In this document: one piece after another, positions 1,851 through 6,595 of the stretch | How positions within the stretch are numbered: the first letter of the stretch is position 1 | How the letters are laid out: each line of letters begins with the position of its first letter | DNA from: Candidatus Omnitrophota bacterium | Lineage (GTDB): Bacteria > Omnitrophota > Gorgyraeia > Gygaellales > Profunditerraquicolaceae | Assembly: GCA_041653115.1 (NCBI GenBank) | Contig: JBAZGA010000003.1 | Coordinates: forward strand, 1,832-65,831 | Direction: 5' to 3' | DNA length: 64,000 nt | Notes under the pieces: model-generated | Database searches by the model: none | Told to the model about the DNA's origin: nothing | Seen by the model: the letters and a program-made list of their open reading frames with translations, nothing else | Program-made: the position numbers and the translations under genes

Positions 1851-2543
1851 TTAGCCGAAAAGCCTTACCTTCAAAATCGCCAGCAACGCAGGAAGCATAT
1901 CAAAGACCCTGATAGTTTTCCCCTCTTTATGCGTGCGCGGCTTATAATAGATAGGGACCTCTTCTATTTTATACCTTCTCTTGCATAATCTACTGGCCAG
2001 CTCGAATTCAAATGCCTGGCTATCTGCCTGGCATCCTAAATCCTTCAAGATAGATGTCTTGATTAATTTAGGGGCAATGACATCGGTAAAATTCCTTTTA
2101 TACAATATATTTATCAAAAAGGTAGCCAGGATCGTCCCTAGCCAGAACGGCCGCTCCTTAATCAATTGCCATTTTGAAATATTATTCTTCTCCAAGAGCC
2201 TTGACCCGAATACGGCATCCAAATCTTCTGCTTCCAGCTTCTTGAGCATCCCTAGAACATCGGACATCCTGTATTCTAAATCCGCGCATGGGCTATAAAG
2301 ATATTCGCCTTTTACAAGTGAAATGGCCATCTTTACAGAATGCCCCACCCCTAAATTTTTTCTTTTTAAGATAACCGTTAAAGAATTATCGTTTAGACCC
2401 CTGAGCAATTCCTGTGTTCCGTCTGTAGAAGCGTTATCTATTATTATTATCTCTTTATCTGCAGGCAATGCCTTTGCTTCCTCGATGGCTTTCAAAATCG
2501 TGGCTTTTTCGTTAAAACACGCAATCGAGACGGCTAATTTCAT
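1851..2543 (-). CDS. Family 2 glycosyltransferase (dolichol-phosphate mannosyltransferase-like)
   Basis: 230 aa. N-terminal GT-A signature IIIIDNASTDGT. ATGA overlap with the downstream gene. Confidence 0.7.
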   Translation of the reverse strand: MKLAVSIACFNEKATILKAIEEAKALPADKEIIIIDNASTDGTQELLRGLNDNSLTVILKRKNLGVGHSVKMAISLVKGEYLYSPCADLEYRMSDVLGMLKKLEAEDLDAVFGSRLLEKNNISKWQLIKERPFWLGTILATFLINILYKRNFTDVIAPKLIKTSILKDLGCQADSQAFEFELASRLCKRRYKIEEVPIYYKPRTHKEGKTIRVFDMLPALLAILKVRLFG

Positions 2544-3874
2544 AAGCCTTTTGTTTTCCTGGAGATAAACTTTTTCATTACTTTGTTTATATGCCCCAAC
2601 ATTGAGGAATCGATCCCCGGATAAACCCCTATCCAGAAAAGATTATTCATCACCGAGTCCGTATTCTTTAAATCGCCGACTTTCCTGTATTTTATATTTT
2701 TATACGCCGGCTGGCGCAATAAATTACCGCCAAAGAGCATCCTCGTAGCTATTTTATGTTTTTCCAAATAAGAAACTAGCTCGTGCCTAGTAAAAGGTGC
2801 GCTTTCTTTGACAAATATCGGGAAACCAAACCACGCTGGCTCTGCTTCCTTGAGCCATTCAGGCAGGATAAAAAAATCTTCATATTCCTTTAGGCAATCA
2901 TAAAGATAAACGAAATTTTTCCTCCGGGCCGCAATAAACCCGGGTAGTTTGTCTAATTGAGCTACTCCGATCGCTGCCTGCATATCGGTAACCTTAAGGT
3001 TATATCCGATGTGGGAGTAGACATATTTATGGTCATAACCATAGGGAAGGCTTGCGAATTTACGAGAAAATCTCTTCCCGCAGGTATTATCATGCCCGGG
3101 CGCACACCAACAATCTCTGCCCCAGTCACGAAAAGACATAATTATTCTTCGCAAGAGGGGGTTATTCGTCAAAACTGCTCCGCCCTCACCCATCGTAATA
3201 TGATGAGGCGGGTAAAAACTGGAAGTGGATATGTCGCCGAATACGCCTGTATATTTATCTCTATATTTTGAGCCGAGTGAATCGCAGTTATCTTCAATCC
3301 ACCATAAAGCGTATTTTTTTACTATTCTTCTTATCGCGTCTATATCAACGGGGTTTCCCAAAGTATGCGCGGTAAATATAGCTTTCGTCTTAGGGCTAAT
3401 CGCCTTTTCTATTTTATCCGCTTCGATGTTATACGTGCCAAGCCCCACGTCAACGAATACGGGAAGCAGATTATTCTGGATAACCGGATTGAGGGTAGTG
3501 GGAAAACCGCAGGCAGTGGTAATAACTTCATCTCCTGCCTTAAGCCGGCGCTTTCCCAATAAAGGCGAAGTAAGCGCGGAAACGGCCAGGAGGTTGGCGG
3601 AAGAGCCGGAATTAGCAAGCAAACAATATTCTATCCCTAAAAATCCGGCAAGCTTATTTTCGAATAATTTCGCATACCTGCCGCTGGTAAGCCAAAAGTC
3701 CAATGATGCGTCAACCAGATTGGTTAATTCTTTGTCATCAAAAACCCTTCCACCGTAAGAGATGGAGGCCTTACCGGGCAAAAAAACTTTTTTTGGCGAA
3801 AGGGAGAAAAAATCTTTAACTTTTTTTAATATTTCTTTTCGTATCTTATCCTGCTTATTCATGGCTTTACTCAA
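2540..3874 (-). CDS. rfbH: CDP-6-deoxy-D-xylo-4-hexulose-3-dehydrase (E1; DegT/DnrJ/EryC1 family, PLP/PMP-dependent)
   Basis: 444 aa, the typical RfbH/DdhC length. DegT-family fold. It sits in a cluster with rfbF and rfbG. Confidence 0.78.
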   Translation of the reverse strand: MSKAMNKQDKIRKEILKKVKDFFSLSPKKVFLPGKASISYGGRVFDDKELTNLVDASLDFWLTSGRYAKLFENKLAGFLGIEYCLLANSGSSANLLAVSALTSPLLGKRRLKAGDEVITTACGFPTTLNPVIQNNLLPVFVDVGLGTYNIEADKIEKAISPKTKAIFTAHTLGNPVDIDAIRRIVKKYALWWIEDNCDSLGSKYRDKYTGVFGDISTSSFYPPHHITMGEGGAVLTNNPLLRRIIMSFRDWGRDCWCAPGHDNTCGKRFSRKFASLPYGYDHKYVYSHIGYNLKVTDMQAAIGVAQLDKLPGFIAARRKNFVYLYDCLKEYEDFFILPEWLKEAEPAWFGFPIFVKESAPFTRHELVSYLEKHKIATRMLFGGNLLRQPAYKNIKYRKVGDLKNTDSVMNNLFWIGVYPGIDSSMLGHINKVMKKFISRKTKGL

Positions 3875-4791: not shown

Positions 4792-4792
4792 T

Positions 4793-6595
4793 TTAGATAT
4801 CCACGGGCTTTACTATCATTTCCGAAAGAAATACCTTTCTGTCTAAAAAAGGGTACATATCTTCCAAGGGTTTGGAAACCAGCGAACCGTCTTCCTTCCT
4901 TACGGAAGAAACCGAAGGCATAACCTCCTGGTCCGGCGGGCAGGCCACTTCGCATATAACCGGGCCCTTCTCTTTAAGCACATTTTCTATCACTCTATCC
5001 AGCTTCCTGCTTTTATCCAGATAATAGTATTTTATCCCGTAAGCGCCGGATATTTTTTTTAATTCCGGAAATGAAACCCCCGAGTTCTTATCTGTTCCTA
5101 TTAACCTGCCCTCAAAGAACCTGGACTGTGTAGCCCTTATGGAAAGGTACCCGTTATTATTCCAAACGAATAATTTAACAGGTAATTTATTGTAAACAAT
5201 GGTCTGGAGTTCCTGCAAATTCATCTGGAATGAGCCGTCTCCGGTTATCCCTATTGTTTCTTTTTTATTGCGCGCAATGCAAATGCCGATTGAAGCGGGG
5301 ATCGTATACCCCATCTCTGCCTGCCCACCCGAAGTAATGTACCTTTGCCCGTCTTTTAATTGTATCCCCTGTGAGACAACGTAAAAAGCAGACCCTGCGT
5401 CAGATATAACTACGGAATCCTTTTTAAGGTTTTTTGATAAACGGTCAATAAAATAGTATGAATTTATGCCTTTTTTGTCTTCGGCATATTCAGGGAGGCA
5501 TACCGGCCATAACCCTTTCCATCTCCGGCATTTTTTTAACCACTGCGATATATCCGGAAAATTAGCGGTCCCTAATGCGCCGAGAAACTGCTTGGCATCG
5601 GCATTGATAAATAAATCTATCCGCACGGTATTTTTTTTGTGTTCTACCGGGTCAATATCCACCACTACAATCTTCGCGTCCCTGCCGAATTTTTCATATT
5701 CATGCCCCGTAGAGTTCACGCTCAGCCTGCTTCCTATGGCAATAATCAAGTCCGCGTTCTGAACGGTAAAATTTCCCGGCCTGTCTCCTTTGTTACCGAT
5801 ACGGCCGATAAAATGAGGGTCAGCGGATGCAAGGATATCAATCCCCAGGTGAGTAGCAACAACAGGGATATCGGCTTTCTTGATAAACCTTCTAAATTCG
5901 GGAATTGCTTTTGCCAGCCTTATGCCTTGCCCGCAGATAATCACCGGTCTTTTAGAGTATTCCAGCAATCTATAGAATTCTTTTATTTCTTCTTCCGTAG
6001 GAACGGTTTTATAAGAAGGCCTTAAATCATCGGGATTAAAATGGACCAATCTTCCGCGGTCAATAAGCGCGCCCTGGACATCTAAAGGGACGTCAATCCA
6101 GACCGGCCCGGGCCTGCCTGATTTTGCCAAATAAGCCGCCTTTTCCAGATGATAGGCGATTTCTTCCGGCTTATTGACCATGGCCGTATATTTAGTTATC
6201 GGCCTTACCATCTCAATGATGTCCGCTTCCTGTGCCCCAAATTGTCTTAAAGACAGGCCCGAATTACGGATAGTCTCTTTCCTCTTGCTCTGGCCAGATA
6301 TAAAGAAGCAGGCGACATTATCCTGCCAGGCCCCCAGCACTCCGGTTATCGTATTGGTCCCGCCGCATCCGGTAGTGACCATTGCCGCGCCAAAATTTTC
6401 ATTATATTTAGCGTAGGAAACAGCAGCCATTGCCGCGGCCTGTTCATGATGGACGCATATTGCCTTCAGTTTAGGGTGGCAGAAAACACCGTCCGATAAA
6501 AACATCATTCCTCCGCCGGTAACCATAAACACTTCTTTTACACCCGAGCGAAAAATATAATCAGCGATATAATCCGCGACACGCATACCCGCCAT
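4793..6595 (-). CDS. Thiamine-diphosphate-dependent enzyme, acetolactate synthase large-subunit-like (candidate YerE-like branched-sugar synthase)
   Basis: 600 aa. ALS/POX three-domain architecture. The ThDP-binding GDGSFQMNLQEL...NNNGY motif is present. No ilvN/ilvC neighbours. It is flanked by CDP-deoxysugar genes. Confidence 0.8.
   Translation of the reverse strand: MAGMRVADYIADYIFRSGVKEVFMVTGGGMMFLSDGVFCHPKLKAICVHHEQAAAMAAVSYAKYNENFGAAMVTTGCGGTNTITGVLGAWQDNVACFFISGQSKRKETIRNSGLSLRQFGAQEADIIEMVRPITKYTAMVNKPEEIAYHLEKAAYLAKSGRPGPVWIDVPLDVQGALIDRGRLVHFNPDDLRPSYKTVPTEEEIKEFYRLLEYSKRPVIICGQGIRLAKAIPEFRRFIKKADIPVVATHLGIDILASADPHFIGRIGNKGDRPGNFTVQNADLIIAIGSRLSVNSTGHEYEKFGRDAKIVVVDIDPVEHKKNTVRIDLFINADAKQFLGALGTANFPDISQWLKKCRRWKGLWPVCLPEYAEDKKGINSYYFIDRLSKNLKKDSVVISDAGSAFYVVSQGIQLKDGQRYITSGGQAEMGYTIPASIGICIARNKKETIGITGDGSFQMNLQELQTIVYNKLPVKLFVWNNNGYLSIRATQSRFFEGRLIGTDKNSGVSFPELKKISGAYGIKYYYLDKSRKLDRVIENVLKEKGPVICEVACPPDQEVMPSVSSVRKEDGSLVSKPLEDMYPFLDRKVFLSEMIVKPVDI

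Follow-up and report, generated by a model that had tools for sequence, protein, structure and literature searches.

A YerE/JanthE-type carboligase and a probable branch-donor module in a predicted branched-sugar operon of an uncultured Omnitrophota bacterium

Results and Discussion

In a 64 kb stretch of DNA (the window) from an uncultured Omnitrophota bacterium we found a single minus-strand operon of 15 genes (14698 to <1, with no intergenic gap above 34 nt), the product of which is very probably a carbon-branched 3,6-dideoxy sugar for the cell surface. We propose a five-step route in which a YerE/JanthE-type carboligase would build a branched CDP-sugar from a donor that is probably not pyruvate, and we hold this reading as a whole with somewhat better than even confidence. 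It is built on the homology of each protein, the structure of the operon and synteny across phyla, and from these we infer every chemical step, which acid serves as donor and where the sugar ends up. The first-pass annotation of the window had placed rfbF, rfbG, rfbH, and genes for a 306-aa SDR, a ThDP enzyme and an epimerase-like protein in a CDP-3,6-dideoxyhexose pathway, and we recovered all of these at or close to their proposed positions, on the minus strand.

The ThDP enzyme is of the YerE/JanthE type

The 600-aa ThDP-dependent enzyme (4793..6595, minus strand), which carries three ThDP Pfam domains and had been described as acetolactate synthase (ALS)-like, scored 361 bits with the top NCBIfam ALS model against a cut-off of 538, and others reached a third of their cut-offs, so that all ALS models stayed under threshold. 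As a single protein searched against the PDB, it matched JanthE best (446 bits), followed by PpYerE (265), AHAS (about 224) and Gcl (168), and a profile of its family ranked them in the same order (546, 336, 288 and 223 bits, respectively). A phylogeny had been suggested as a check; in our small neighbor-joining tree, which held E. coli IlvI and Arabidopsis AHAS on the AHAS side and was built without YpYerE, ErwE and MMAR_2332, the family grouped with JanthE, and these in turn with PpYerE, separate from AHAS (bootstraps 100/100). Because JanthE and PpYerE outranked AHAS and because of these bootstraps, we rejected an anabolic IlvB identity; together with the scores below every NCBIfam ALS cut-off, these comparisons indicate that the enzyme is a YerE/JanthE-type carboligase and not an acetolactate synthase of the anabolic kind. 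No ilvN or ilvC partner turned up when all 59 large ORFs of the window were scanned with Pfam, in agreement with the first-pass annotation.

The catalytic Glu51 and the GDG(452-454)...NN(479-480) motif of the enzyme were invariant across the family. The alignments of PpYerE and AHAS to the family profile stopped at positions 559 and 562, short of the C-terminal tail of the window enzyme (KPLEDMYPFL); that of JanthE ran to the end of the profile and covered the tail. JanthE, a 'YerE-like' enzyme of Janthinobacterium sp. HH01 (8rph/8rpi/8rpj), is the best solved relative, with about 38% identity over an end-to-end alignment, but it has an unusual CDG in place of the canonical GDG of the window enzyme, and its hot-spot residues V121/Y268/P293/Y297/K567 are replaced by A/K/N/H/S. 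PpYerE (5ahk), although second among the PDB matches, is about 30% identical. With AHAS (IlvB/IlvI/IlvG plus small subunit) the window enzyme shares the three-domain ThDP fold, the catalytic Glu, GDG...NN and 28-30% identity, but differs in its scores under the family cut-offs, its lack of a small-subunit or ilvC neighbour, its genomic context and its position in the tree.

JanthE and YerE have been shown by experiment to be ketone-accepting carboligases (PMC12188165, PMC12247030), and the donors of JanthE are alpha-keto acids with three to six carbons (C3 to C6; PMC12188165). YerE had been taken for the only precedent in such a pathway, which proved too restrictive: ErwE, MMAR_2332, MyGE and JanthE are also known, with more than 200 predicted clusters (PMC9306805, PMC12247030), and a 'unifying scheme' for acyl-branched sugars covers ErwE/ErwF/ErwI/ErwJ (erwiniose), MMAR_2332 (caryophyllose) and MyGE (gastriose) (PMC9306805). 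The YerE/YerF system of Yersinia pseudotuberculosis (CDP-yersiniose A) follows the same logic as the window, with a ThDP enzyme beside ddh genes and then a reductase.

Genes for the CDP-sugar acceptor and its electron supply

The gene rfbF/ddhA (11812..12612, minus strand; likely ATG start at 12612, in an ORF open from 12648) was assigned as glucose-1-phosphate cytidylyltransferase by TIGR02623 (339 bits, cut-off 300), and its product would make CDP-glucose. An rfbG/ddhB-like gene (10826..11824, minus strand) overlaps it by 13 nt and encodes an NDP-hexose 4,6-dehydratase that would convert CDP-glucose to CDP-4-keto-6-deoxyglucose. The earlier call of rfbG stood as to the 4,6-dehydratase, and as to the CDP type it is barely favoured: the protein is probably a CDP-glucose 4,6-dehydratase, as its top PDB match is that enzyme (1rkx, 129 bits) and its S-D-K motif aligns with T-S-D-K of 1rkx, but dTDP-type enzymes were nearly tied and TIGR02622 gave 189 bits, under the cut-off of 278.

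The 444-aa product of rfbH (E1/DdhC; 2540..3874, minus strand) matched the PMP- and [2Fe-2S]-dependent CDP-4-keto-6-deoxyglucose 3-dehydrase, with 707 bits for NF011936 (cut-off 423) and 550 bits to Yersinia E1 (PDB 3bcx). The possibility of a generic DegT aminotransferase had been raised; however, His220 and the [2Fe-2S] cysteines C193, C251, C253 and C261 (E1 numbering) were all kept, as in the E1 enzymes of the DdhC/DdhD and AscC/AscD pairs, which argues that rfbH encodes a genuine E1 3-dehydrase. This enzyme would strip the 3-OH to yield CDP-4-keto-3,6-dideoxyglucose.

Unlike in those pairs, no E3 reductase lies nearby, as the first-pass annotation had also concluded. Pfam scans of the window's 59 large ORFs, a search of its ORFs for CxxxxCxxC, and tblastn with E3/FNR proteins of related loci were each negative for E3, and none was present in the 64 kb window plus 2.6 kb extra, so that E1 turnover would depend on electrons from a reductase encoded elsewhere. 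This absence is typical, as E3 was likewise missing from 40 of the 43 full-context loci of the ThDP family. The Yersinia ddh cluster contains E3 (ddhD), which the Omnitrophota operon does not. SpnQ of the spinosyn pathway is likewise not known to have a dedicated E3 and works with general ferredoxin or flavodoxin reductases.

Synteny across phyla and a putative donor module

Orthologues of the ThDP enzyme (51-78% identity) were spread over Bacteria and Archaea, covering more than 15 phyla, and in most of 83 loci, spread over many phyla, rfbF, a 4,6-dehydratase gene and E1 adjoined the ThDP gene. Of the 43 loci with full flanks, 42 had an extended SDR, 37 had E1 and 36 had RfbF. In 52 of the 83 loci an SDR gene came immediately 3' of the ThDP gene, and was of the 306-aa type in 22. 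In some CPR loci (Saccharibacteria, Patescibacteria), the ThDP gene was paired with an E1-like protein without the Fe-S cysteines. The slot directly 5' of the ThDP gene held an enzyme that makes an alpha-keto acid in 59/83 loci (class I aminotransferase in 49, HpaI aldolase in 10), and DmpG/DmpF was present in another 13. Three gammaproteobacterial loci (L054, L066, L088) showed the full canonical order E3-RfbF-RfbG-E1-donor gene(s)-ThDP-SDR306, where the donor gene(s) encoded either an aminotransferase or DmpF/DmpG. Such a slot upstream of the ThDP gene matches the published ErwE scheme (PMC9306805). Erwiniose-type clusters resemble the operon in combining a ThDP enzyme and a reductase with the CDP-4-keto-3,6-dideoxyglucose pathway and with a dedicated source of a functionalised alpha-keto acid, and the DmpG/DmpF-type aldolase-dehydrogenase pair of the erwiniose cluster also appears in the 13 related loci.

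Between rfbG and the ThDP gene lie four genes (6599-10791, minus strand) on which the first-pass annotation was silent. Three of them form a trio: a UxaA/GarD-family dehydratase (9301..10791; Pfam GD_AH_second and GD_AH_C), equidistant from UxaA and GarD (259 bits to E. coli GarD 6u7l, 35% identity to E. coli UxaA); an MtlD-like long-chain polyol-phosphate dehydrogenase (8183..9304; Mannitol_dh and Mannitol_dh_C), with its true start at M22 in an ATGA overlap with the dehydratase gene; and an IMPase-family sugar phosphatase (7368..8186; Inositol_P, 142 bits; up to 100 bits to PDB inositol monophosphatases), the gene of which overlaps the MtlD-like gene by 4 nt. The MtlD-like protein gave 72 bits to PDB 3h2z, fell under the cut-off of all NCBIfam MtlD models, and was represented by more than 120 homologue clusters at 53-95% identity, including one with a fusion to an IMPase domain. 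The fourth gene, NTP2 (6599..7339), encodes a second, divergent RfbF paralogue (TIGR02623 182 bits, under the cut-off of 300; 136 bits to PDB 1tzf), and in locus L174 a 51% identical orthologue was the sole nucleotidyltransferase beside a 4,6-dehydratase.

The trio was conserved together in L008, L009, L176, L172, L174 and L173. The UxaA-MtlD-IMPase-NTP2 block of L009 and L176 filled exactly the slot that an aminotransferase has in the closest relatives, L001 and L007, and the trio also lay directly 5' of more distant YerE-like genes (41-45% identity) in Methanospirillum and Bacteroidales loci, in the former (an archaeon) without NTP2. As the trio stands where aminotransferases or aldolases otherwise stand, it is probably the supplier of the donor acid, which would be a 2-keto-3-deoxy (gamma-hydroxy-alpha-keto) acid in place of pyruvate. 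To our knowledge, characterised UxaA/GarD/SuyAB-family enzymes give alpha-keto acid products throughout, and the dehydratase is the putative maker of the 2-keto-3-deoxy acid, which would arise from a sugar phosphate with the aid of the dehydrogenase and phosphatase. An NRPS cluster of Desulfobacterales had the UxaA-like part in frame with an NRPS, the MtlD-like and IMPase parts as one fused protein, and an aminotransferase after them, an arrangement that fits the trio making a keto compound open to transamination. We were unable to draw a coherent pathway that starts at a known metabolite and uses all three enzymes. The carboligase would then decarboxylate the alpha-keto acid and join the acyl carbanion to the C4 carbonyl of CDP-4-keto-3,6-dideoxyglucose, giving a tertiary alcohol that carries a side chain with a keto group.

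The ThDP tree, E1 and synteny thus support the branched sugar that had been proposed earlier; its description as yersiniose-like may be too narrow, since the donor is probably not pyruvate. Plain yersiniose-type chemistry, in which pyruvate would give a C2 acetyl branch that the SDR reduces, and the trio and NTP2 would serve an unrelated glycan component such as an NDP-activated alditol or other sugar, appears unlikely to us. Pyruvate is used by YerE and is among the donors accepted by JanthE (PMC12247030, PMC12188165), but ErwE, whose cluster has a dedicated donor module, refuses it (PMC9306805). Trio-type and aminotransferase-type clusters encode ThDP enzymes that do not differ at the JanthE hot-spot positions, and one column only separated the two groups, so that the sequences give no sign of a distinct donor pocket. 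An MtlD-like enzyme with a nucleotidyltransferase also recalls the logic of CDP-alditol synthesis (TarJ/TarI); however, alditol activation has no role for a UxaA-family dehydratase, the archaeal locus has the trio without NTP2, and both the exact slot of the trio and its presence beside distant YerE-like genes argue against a separate function. Where Yersinia YerE takes pyruvate and an aldolase gives the donor in the erwiniose, caryophyllose and gastriose systems, the candidate supplier in the Omnitrophota cluster is the trio.

Reductase, glycosyltransferase and outer genes

The 306-aa SDR (3871..4791, minus strand) has a YxxxK motif and matched Pfam Epimerase only (43 bits), with no PDB match and no characterised relative detectable in NCBIfam or PDB. 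By its position it would be the YerF-like ketoreductase of the branch, reducing the side-chain carbonyl. The coupling of the ThDP, SDR and rfbH genes was confirmed as to distance (1 nt from ThDP to SDR; 8 nt from SDR to E1, or a 4-nt overlap with a TTG start), but the ThDP gene precedes the other two in transcription order instead of following them.

It is also conceivable, though we judge it quite improbable, that the ThDP enzyme uses another acceptor, such as CDP-4-keto-6-deoxyglucose that still has its 3-OH or a free keto sugar or acid from the trio, and that the SDR is an ordinary C4 ketoreductase leading to an unbranched 3,6-dideoxyhexose of the paratose/abequose type. The lack of a characterised SDR relative and the CPR loci described above would suit this, as would an epimerase-like gene (22555-23598, minus strand) that was correctly flagged earlier and is CDP-tyvelose-2-epimerase-like (250 bits to 9rl0, 218 bits to 1orr). 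However, that gene belongs to a different gene group at a distance of 18 kb, E1 is kept in 37/43 full-context loci, and the 1-nt gap and the 22 loci with this SDR type 3' of the ThDP gene tie the SDR to the carboligase. An ordinary acetolactate/acetohydroxyacid synthase (IlvB/AlsS) merely sitting among sugar genes is hardly credible, for although ALS large-subunit models scored highest in NCBIfam and some databases name homologues 'acetolactate synthase', the shortfall from the cut-offs, the closer match to JanthE/PpYerE, the C-terminal tail, the absence of ilvN/ilvC and the E1/RfbF/RfbG synteny across phyla all oppose it.

In the route that we favour, a soluble 230-aa GT2 glycosyltransferase (1851..2543, minus strand; Pfam Glycos_transf_2), the gene of which overlaps that of E1 by 4 nt (ATGA), would transfer the sugar further, perhaps to a polyprenyl phosphate carrier that a GT-C enzyme would use. 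It had no TM segment, and its weak NCBIfam matches (AglJ, PpgS, dolichyl-P hexose transferase), all under cut-off, suggest that it is possibly a polyprenyl-phosphate sugar transferase; orthologues with 63-67% identity occupied the equivalent position in L007, L009 and L176. A loosely associated candidate for the GT-C-type transferase is a 686-aa multi-pass membrane protein (32908..34968, minus strand; about 12-14 hydrophobic segments, then some 160 aa that form a soluble C-terminal domain), which had no Pfam or NCBIfam match and was 47-50% identical to proteins directly 3' of the cassette in L001 and L007.

The operon begins with the gene of a 133-aa winged-helix regulator (14297..14698; Pfam HTH_24), 185 nt downstream of the gap gene, and continues 1 nt further on with rmlA (glucose-1-phosphate thymidylyltransferase, 13429..14295; TIGR01207 461 bits, cut-off 361) and a divergent RmlD-like SDR gene (12609..13439; Pfam RmlD_sub_bind 49 bits; TIGR01214 56 bits, far under the cut-off of 224). 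At the other end lie rmlB (dTDP-glucose 4,6-dehydratase, 858..1838; TIGR01181 429 bits, cut-off 365) and, as the last visible gene, an Fcl-like SDR gene identified from its translation and truncated by the window edge (1..858), all on the minus strand. In a DNA-identical contig (L175) the Fcl-like SDR measures 321 aa, and genes for a DegT aminotransferase and a hexapeptide acetyltransferase come after it.

The carboligase is of a kind already known. The part for which we found no description in the literature searched is the UxaA/GarD-type dehydratase with its MtlD-like and IMPase-like partners, a trio that would probably supply the branch of the sugar.

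Organization of the operon

The large ORFs of the window all lie on the minus strand. The operon under study comprises 15 genes, spaced by -13 to +34 nt, that begin at 14698 and continue to the window start. These encode, in order, a winged-helix regulator, RmlA, an RmlD-like SDR, RfbF, an RfbG-like 4,6-dehydratase, a UxaA/GarD-like dehydratase (9301..10791), an MtlD-like dehydrogenase (8183..9304), an IMPase-like phosphatase (7368..8186), a second and divergent RfbF paralogue that we call NTP2 (6599..7339), a 600-aa ThDP enzyme (4793..6595), a 306-aa SDR (3871..4791), the E1 protein RfbH/DdhC (2540..3874), a 230-aa GT2, RmlB, and an Fcl-like SDR whose gene is truncated at the window edge. 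An 8.3-kb contig that is DNA-identical to the window (L175) extends this region 2.6 kb past the edge, completing the Fcl-like gene (321 aa) and adding genes for a DegT aminotransferase and a hexapeptide acetyltransferase. Exact-sequence searches with RmlB and GT2 matched this contig alone, and one with the ThDP protein had no match, probably owing to a different start-codon call.

The genes named in the first-pass annotation proved to be real, and its rfbF scored 339 against a family cut-off of 300; its list left out the four genes at 6599-10791. The gene that it called rfbG is present, but its product scored only 189 bits with TIGR02622, below the cut-off of 278. The best PDB match of this protein was the CDP-glucose 4,6-dehydratase 1rkx, nearly tied with dTDP-type enzymes, and its assignment as a CDP-glucose 4,6-dehydratase therefore rests partly on context. 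Its S-D-K motif aligned to T-S-D-K of 1rkx, and we take Asp-Lys in the active site to be a mark of the CDP type. The gene at 22555-23598, described earlier as CDP-paratose-2-epimerase-like, encodes a 347-aa SDR that is indeed CDP-tyvelose-2-epimerase-like (250 bits to PDB 9rl0), and it belongs to a separate gene group 18 kb away.

The operon also holds genes of a dTDP branch. Its RmlD-like gene (12609-13439, minus strand) has diverged strongly, scoring only 56 bits with TIGR01214 (cut-off 224). The operon includes both rmlA and rmlB, but no rmlC was seen. Given the DegT and acetyltransferase genes on L175, this branch may lead to an N-acetylated amino-6-deoxyhexose rather than to rhamnose.

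Identity of the ThDP enzyme

The 600-aa enzyme contains the three Pfam domains PF02776, PF00205 and PF02775, and neither its catalytic residue E51 nor the cofactor-motif residues G452-D453-G454 and N479-N480 vary across the family alignment. Among structures in the PDB, the single sequence ranked JanthE first (446 bits), followed by PpYerE (265), plant AHAS (about 224) and glyoxylate carboligase (168), and a 17-member family profile gave the same ranking (546, 336, 288 and 223 bits, respectively). Identity to the window enzyme was 38% for JanthE, 30.5% for PpYerE and 28-30% for AHAS. JanthE aligned to the family profile along its entire length, C-terminal tail (KPLEDMYPFL) included, but the alignments of PpYerE and AHAS stopped at profile positions 559 and 562.

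An anabolic acetolactate synthase (IlvB/I/G) was considered and rejected. The best NCBIfam ALS model, TIGR00118, gave 361 bits against a cut-off of 538, about 20 other NCBIfam ALS models were all far under their cut-offs, and the window holds no ilvN, ilvH or ilvC; the lack of an ilvN or ilvC partner had already been remarked on, and Pfam searches of the 59 window ORFs bear it out. A phylogeny of the kind proposed by the first-pass annotation likewise grouped the family first with JanthE and next with PpYerE, separately from E. coli IlvI and Arabidopsis AHAS and with 100/100 bootstraps, in a small and simple NJ tree that was rooted on E. coli Gcl, had JanthE and PpYerE as its only YerE-like references and did not include YpYerE, ErwE or MMAR_2332. 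Judged by its sequence, then, the ThDP enzyme is YerE/JanthE-like and not an ALS.

This much of the original YerE-like reading holds, but YerE is not its only precedent, as the class is already known from YerE/YerF, ErwE, MMAR_2332, MyGE and JanthE. JanthE, which reportedly was first described in Lanza 2024, is the nearest of the structures. It has been described as a YerE-like carboligase that accepts ketones, and its physiological substrates are not known (PMC12188165, PMC12247030).

Conserved synteny and spread of the family

The ThDP enzyme shares its operon with ddhA-, probable ddhB- and ddhC-type genes for CDP-4-keto-3,6-dideoxyglucose, and the gene for the 306-aa SDR, for which no relative was found in PDB or NCBIfam searches, begins 1 nt downstream of it. 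Among the matches listed, the family had at least 120 cluster representatives, 64-97% identical; in one-genome-per-species data, the 80 loci kept, out of 160 confirmed relatives, were 51-70% identical. The bacterial hosts of these loci include Omnitrophota, Lentisphaerae, Chloroflexi, Geobacter, Planctomycetes, Verrucomicrobiota, Saccharibacteria and other CPR bacteria, Leptospirales, Campylobacterota, Lachnospiraceae, Sporomusa and several Gammaproteobacteria, and the archaeal hosts include Bathyarchaeia, Micrarchaeota, Methanobacteriaceae and Methanoperedens.

ORFs flanking the ThDP gene were clustered for a non-redundant set of 83 loci, and 43 of these had full context, with flanks of 6 kb or more on the upstream side and 4 kb or more on the downstream side. 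E1 was found in 37, RfbF in 36 and an extended SDR in 42 of these 43 loci. An SDR gene lay directly downstream of the ThDP gene in 52/83 loci, and in 22 it was of the 306-aa type seen in the window. The complete E3-RfbF-RfbG-E1-donor gene(s)-ThDP-SDR306 arrangement was seen in three gammaproteobacterial loci, of which two have an aminotransferase as donor gene and the third has DmpF/DmpG. This conserved synteny is the strongest evidence that the ThDP enzyme would act on a product of the ddh pathway, and the enzyme very probably branches a CDP-4-keto-dideoxyhexose.

E1 and the absence of E3

The reading of RfbH as an E1 dehydrase was borne out by its family score (NCBIfam NF011936, 707 bits against a cut-off of 423), by its match to the Yersinia E1 structure 3bcx (550 bits) and by its E1-specific motifs, in which His220 replaces the PLP lysine and the [2Fe-2S] cysteines C193, C251, C253 and C261 are all present. 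The position of C257, the sole non-ligand cysteine of Yersinia E1, is occupied by His.

No E3 was found by Pfam among the 59 window ORFs, the plant-ferredoxin motif occurred in none of them, and tblastn with the E3/FNR proteins of related loci returned no match, such that E3 is absent both from the window and from L175 as far as 2.6 kb past the edge. A full E3 (Fer2 + FAD_binding_6 + NAD_binding_1) was present in only 3/43 full-context loci, with an FNR-only protein in five others. Among 60 neighbouring E1 homologues, 47-48 had all four cysteines and 59 had His220. Because E3 is usually missing while the E1 cysteines are kept, its absence from the window is the family norm and no argument against E1 function. 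Presumably a general reductase supplies the reductant of E1, a situation for which we take SpnQ to be a precedent.

The Fe-S cysteines were missing in about 12 of the 60 homologues. Five CPR loci of Saccharibacteria and Patescibacteria (L014, L020, L031, L035 and L037) combine a ThDP gene with an E1-like protein on the opposite strand that is only 36-38% identical. These loci may rely on ColD-like or aminotransferase chemistry and on a different acceptor.

The proposed donor slot and a dehydratase-dehydrogenase-phosphatase trio

In 49 of the 83 loci, the position just before the ThDP gene (the donor slot) is taken by a class I aminotransferase gene and in 10 by an HpcH/HpaI aldolase gene, and a DmpG/DmpF aldolase-dehydrogenase pair was present in 13. 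The DmpG/DmpF pair is the assigned donor supplier of the erwiniose cluster, whose ErwE rejects pyruvate and accepts 4-hydroxy-2-oxo acids; the donors of ErwE, MMAR_2332 and MyGE are all supplied by aldolases (PMC9306805). The closest long-contig relatives of the window, L001 (73%) and L007 (78%), have the order RfbF-RfbG-MBL-aminotransferase-ThDP-SDR-E1-GT2. A block of UxaA-like, MtlD-like, IMPase and NTP2 genes replaces the aminotransferase in the window and in the related loci L008 (97%), L176 (73%) and L009 (70%). The 246-aa MBL-fold (RNase Z/PhnP-like) gene, which separates the 4,6-dehydratase gene from the donor gene in L001, L003, L007 (8084-8824) and L009, occurs in aminotransferase-type and trio-type cassettes alike and is missing from that of the window.

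The first three genes of this block, the UxaA-like, MtlD-like and IMPase-like genes, recur together elsewhere. The MtlD-like query gave more than 120 homologue clusters, of which three were examined. On a contig from Bacteroidales, a YerE-like gene (41% identical) directly follows the trio, with an HpaI aldolase, an NTP2 orthologue, a 4,6-dehydratase, E1, GT2, GtrA and YfhO as neighbours, and in Methanospirillum a methyltransferase gene and a short-chain dehydrogenase gene stand between the trio and the YerE-like gene (45% identical) downstream of it. In a Desulfobacterales MAG (GCA_002753225.1, L173, 1-13145), an NRPS ORF carries an in-frame C-terminal UxaA-like region, 50% identical to that of the window, and the next genes encode a 646-aa MtlD-like::IMPase fusion protein and a DegT-type aminotransferase; this cluster may encode a route to a hydroxylated non-proteinogenic amino acid. 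These contexts lead us to conclude that the trio behaves as a single functional unit, the product of which would go to a ThDP enzyme or a transaminase. The Methanospirillum sp. locus (L172, 1-21119) also pairs the trio and YerE-like gene with E1_dh/Transket_pyr and split-transketolase pairs, SIS, PfkB, TAL_FSA and several methyltransferases, and may hold two or three distinct ThDP-based sugar-branching systems side by side.

The dehydratase has a full-length GD_AH architecture, scored 307 bits with TIGR03248 (cut-off 731), and was equidistant from E. coli UxaA (35% identity, 251 bits) and E. coli GarD (259 bits); it is a member of the UxaA/GarD family. Since characterised UxaA/GarD/SuyAB-family enzymes yield alpha-keto acids, we infer that the product of the trio would be a 2-keto-3-deoxy acid. 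That the trio supplies the donor of the ThDP enzyme is possible, if somewhat short of an even chance. No route from a common metabolite through all three enzymes could be written, and 6-phosphogluconate to KDPG to KDG is offered as a guess. In the donor pocket, no JanthE hot spot separated trio-type from aminotransferase-type ThDP enzymes, and only one alignment column (C221 versus A) did so. A metagenome scan with the UxaA-like alignment returned 80 loci of the generic UxaA family (41-47% identity), with the trio in none.

Two other readings of the trio were dropped as primary ones, a CDP-mannitol/alditol pathway, which would leave the dehydratase without a role, and an inositol/glucuronate/mannonate route, for which three needed enzymes are not in the cluster.

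Possible fate of the sugar, and other glycan genes

The gene for the 230-aa GT2 has an ATGA overlap with that of E1 and a position conserved in relatives, and its product has weak similarity to polyprenyl-phosphate sugar transferases. Related cassettes adjoin GtrA + YfhO, GtrA, or PMT_2-type GT-C genes, and a 686-aa multi-pass protein of the window (32908-34968, minus strand), for which no family match was found, has homologues of 47-50% identity encoded just past the cassette in L001 and L007. These similarities hint that the sugar might be passed on via GT2 and polyprenyl phosphate to the envelope.

The gene for the 686-aa protein is part of an LPS-core-like group (26691-34968, minus strand) that also includes ManC-like, GT9, Wzy_C (O-antigen-ligase-like), three GT2 and methyltransferase genes, several of which have homologues placed right behind the branched-sugar cassette of L001 and L007. 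At 22555-25681 (minus strand), the CDP-tyvelose-2-epimerase-like SDR, a 300-aa radical-SAM protein and a 387-aa DegT aminotransferase form a second nucleotide-sugar gene set that adjoins heptosyltransferase genes. A 606-aa NodU/CmcH-type carbamoyltransferase and a small SxtJ-like membrane protein (35162-37426, minus strand), a pair also found near the ThDP gene of the Omnitrophota locus L024 (60% and 32% identity), may point to O-carbamoylated glycans. Tandem GalT/HIT-like paralogues of 331 and 341 aa with DUF4921 and GalP_UDP_transf matches (15920-17940, minus strand) adjoin the gap gene, and four consecutive ORFs of 476, 486, 149 and 250 aa (50857-54893, minus strand) had no Pfam match.

Discussion

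Carbon-branched 3,6-dideoxy sugars are rare and strongly antigenic surface sugars, and to our knowledge only a handful (yersiniose, erwiniose, caryophyllose and gastriose) are known chemically. An in-silico set of more than 200 predicted clusters, reportedly surveyed in Krug 2024, is cited in PMC12247030. Relative to the literature searched, which did not extend to the Krug 2024 survey, three features appear to be new: a trio built around a dehydratase that is a candidate source of the donor, the use of this trio again in an NRPS cluster, and how widely the family is spread among uncultured lineages.

In its fullest form, our proposal is that the trio is a portable and hitherto undescribed module converting a central sugar phosphate to a polyhydroxylated 2-keto-3-deoxy acid, which would feed a YerE-like enzyme here and an NRPS in Desulfobacterales, with the resulting higher branched sugar going to the envelope via polyprenyl phosphate. 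We regard this whole chain as rather unlikely. If it is true, the product would be, for example, a 3,6-dideoxy-4-C-(tetrahydroxypentyl)hexose, a branched sugar of a sort seen in no glycan so far, and the NRPS would receive an unusual hydroxylated amino acid.

The ThDP family would also be a pool of ketone-accepting carboligases for chiral tertiary alcohols. The branching enzymes are widespread and well conserved (51-78% identity) in uncultured bacteria and archaea, including Omnitrophota, CPR bacteria (Saccharibacteria and Patescibacteria) and small archaea such as Micrarchaeota. The trio would be a fourth supplier type beside the aminotransferase and the two aldolase types. Donor-supply genes appear interchangeable, and branch structure could therefore be predicted from sequence by way of the gene that precedes the ThDP gene.
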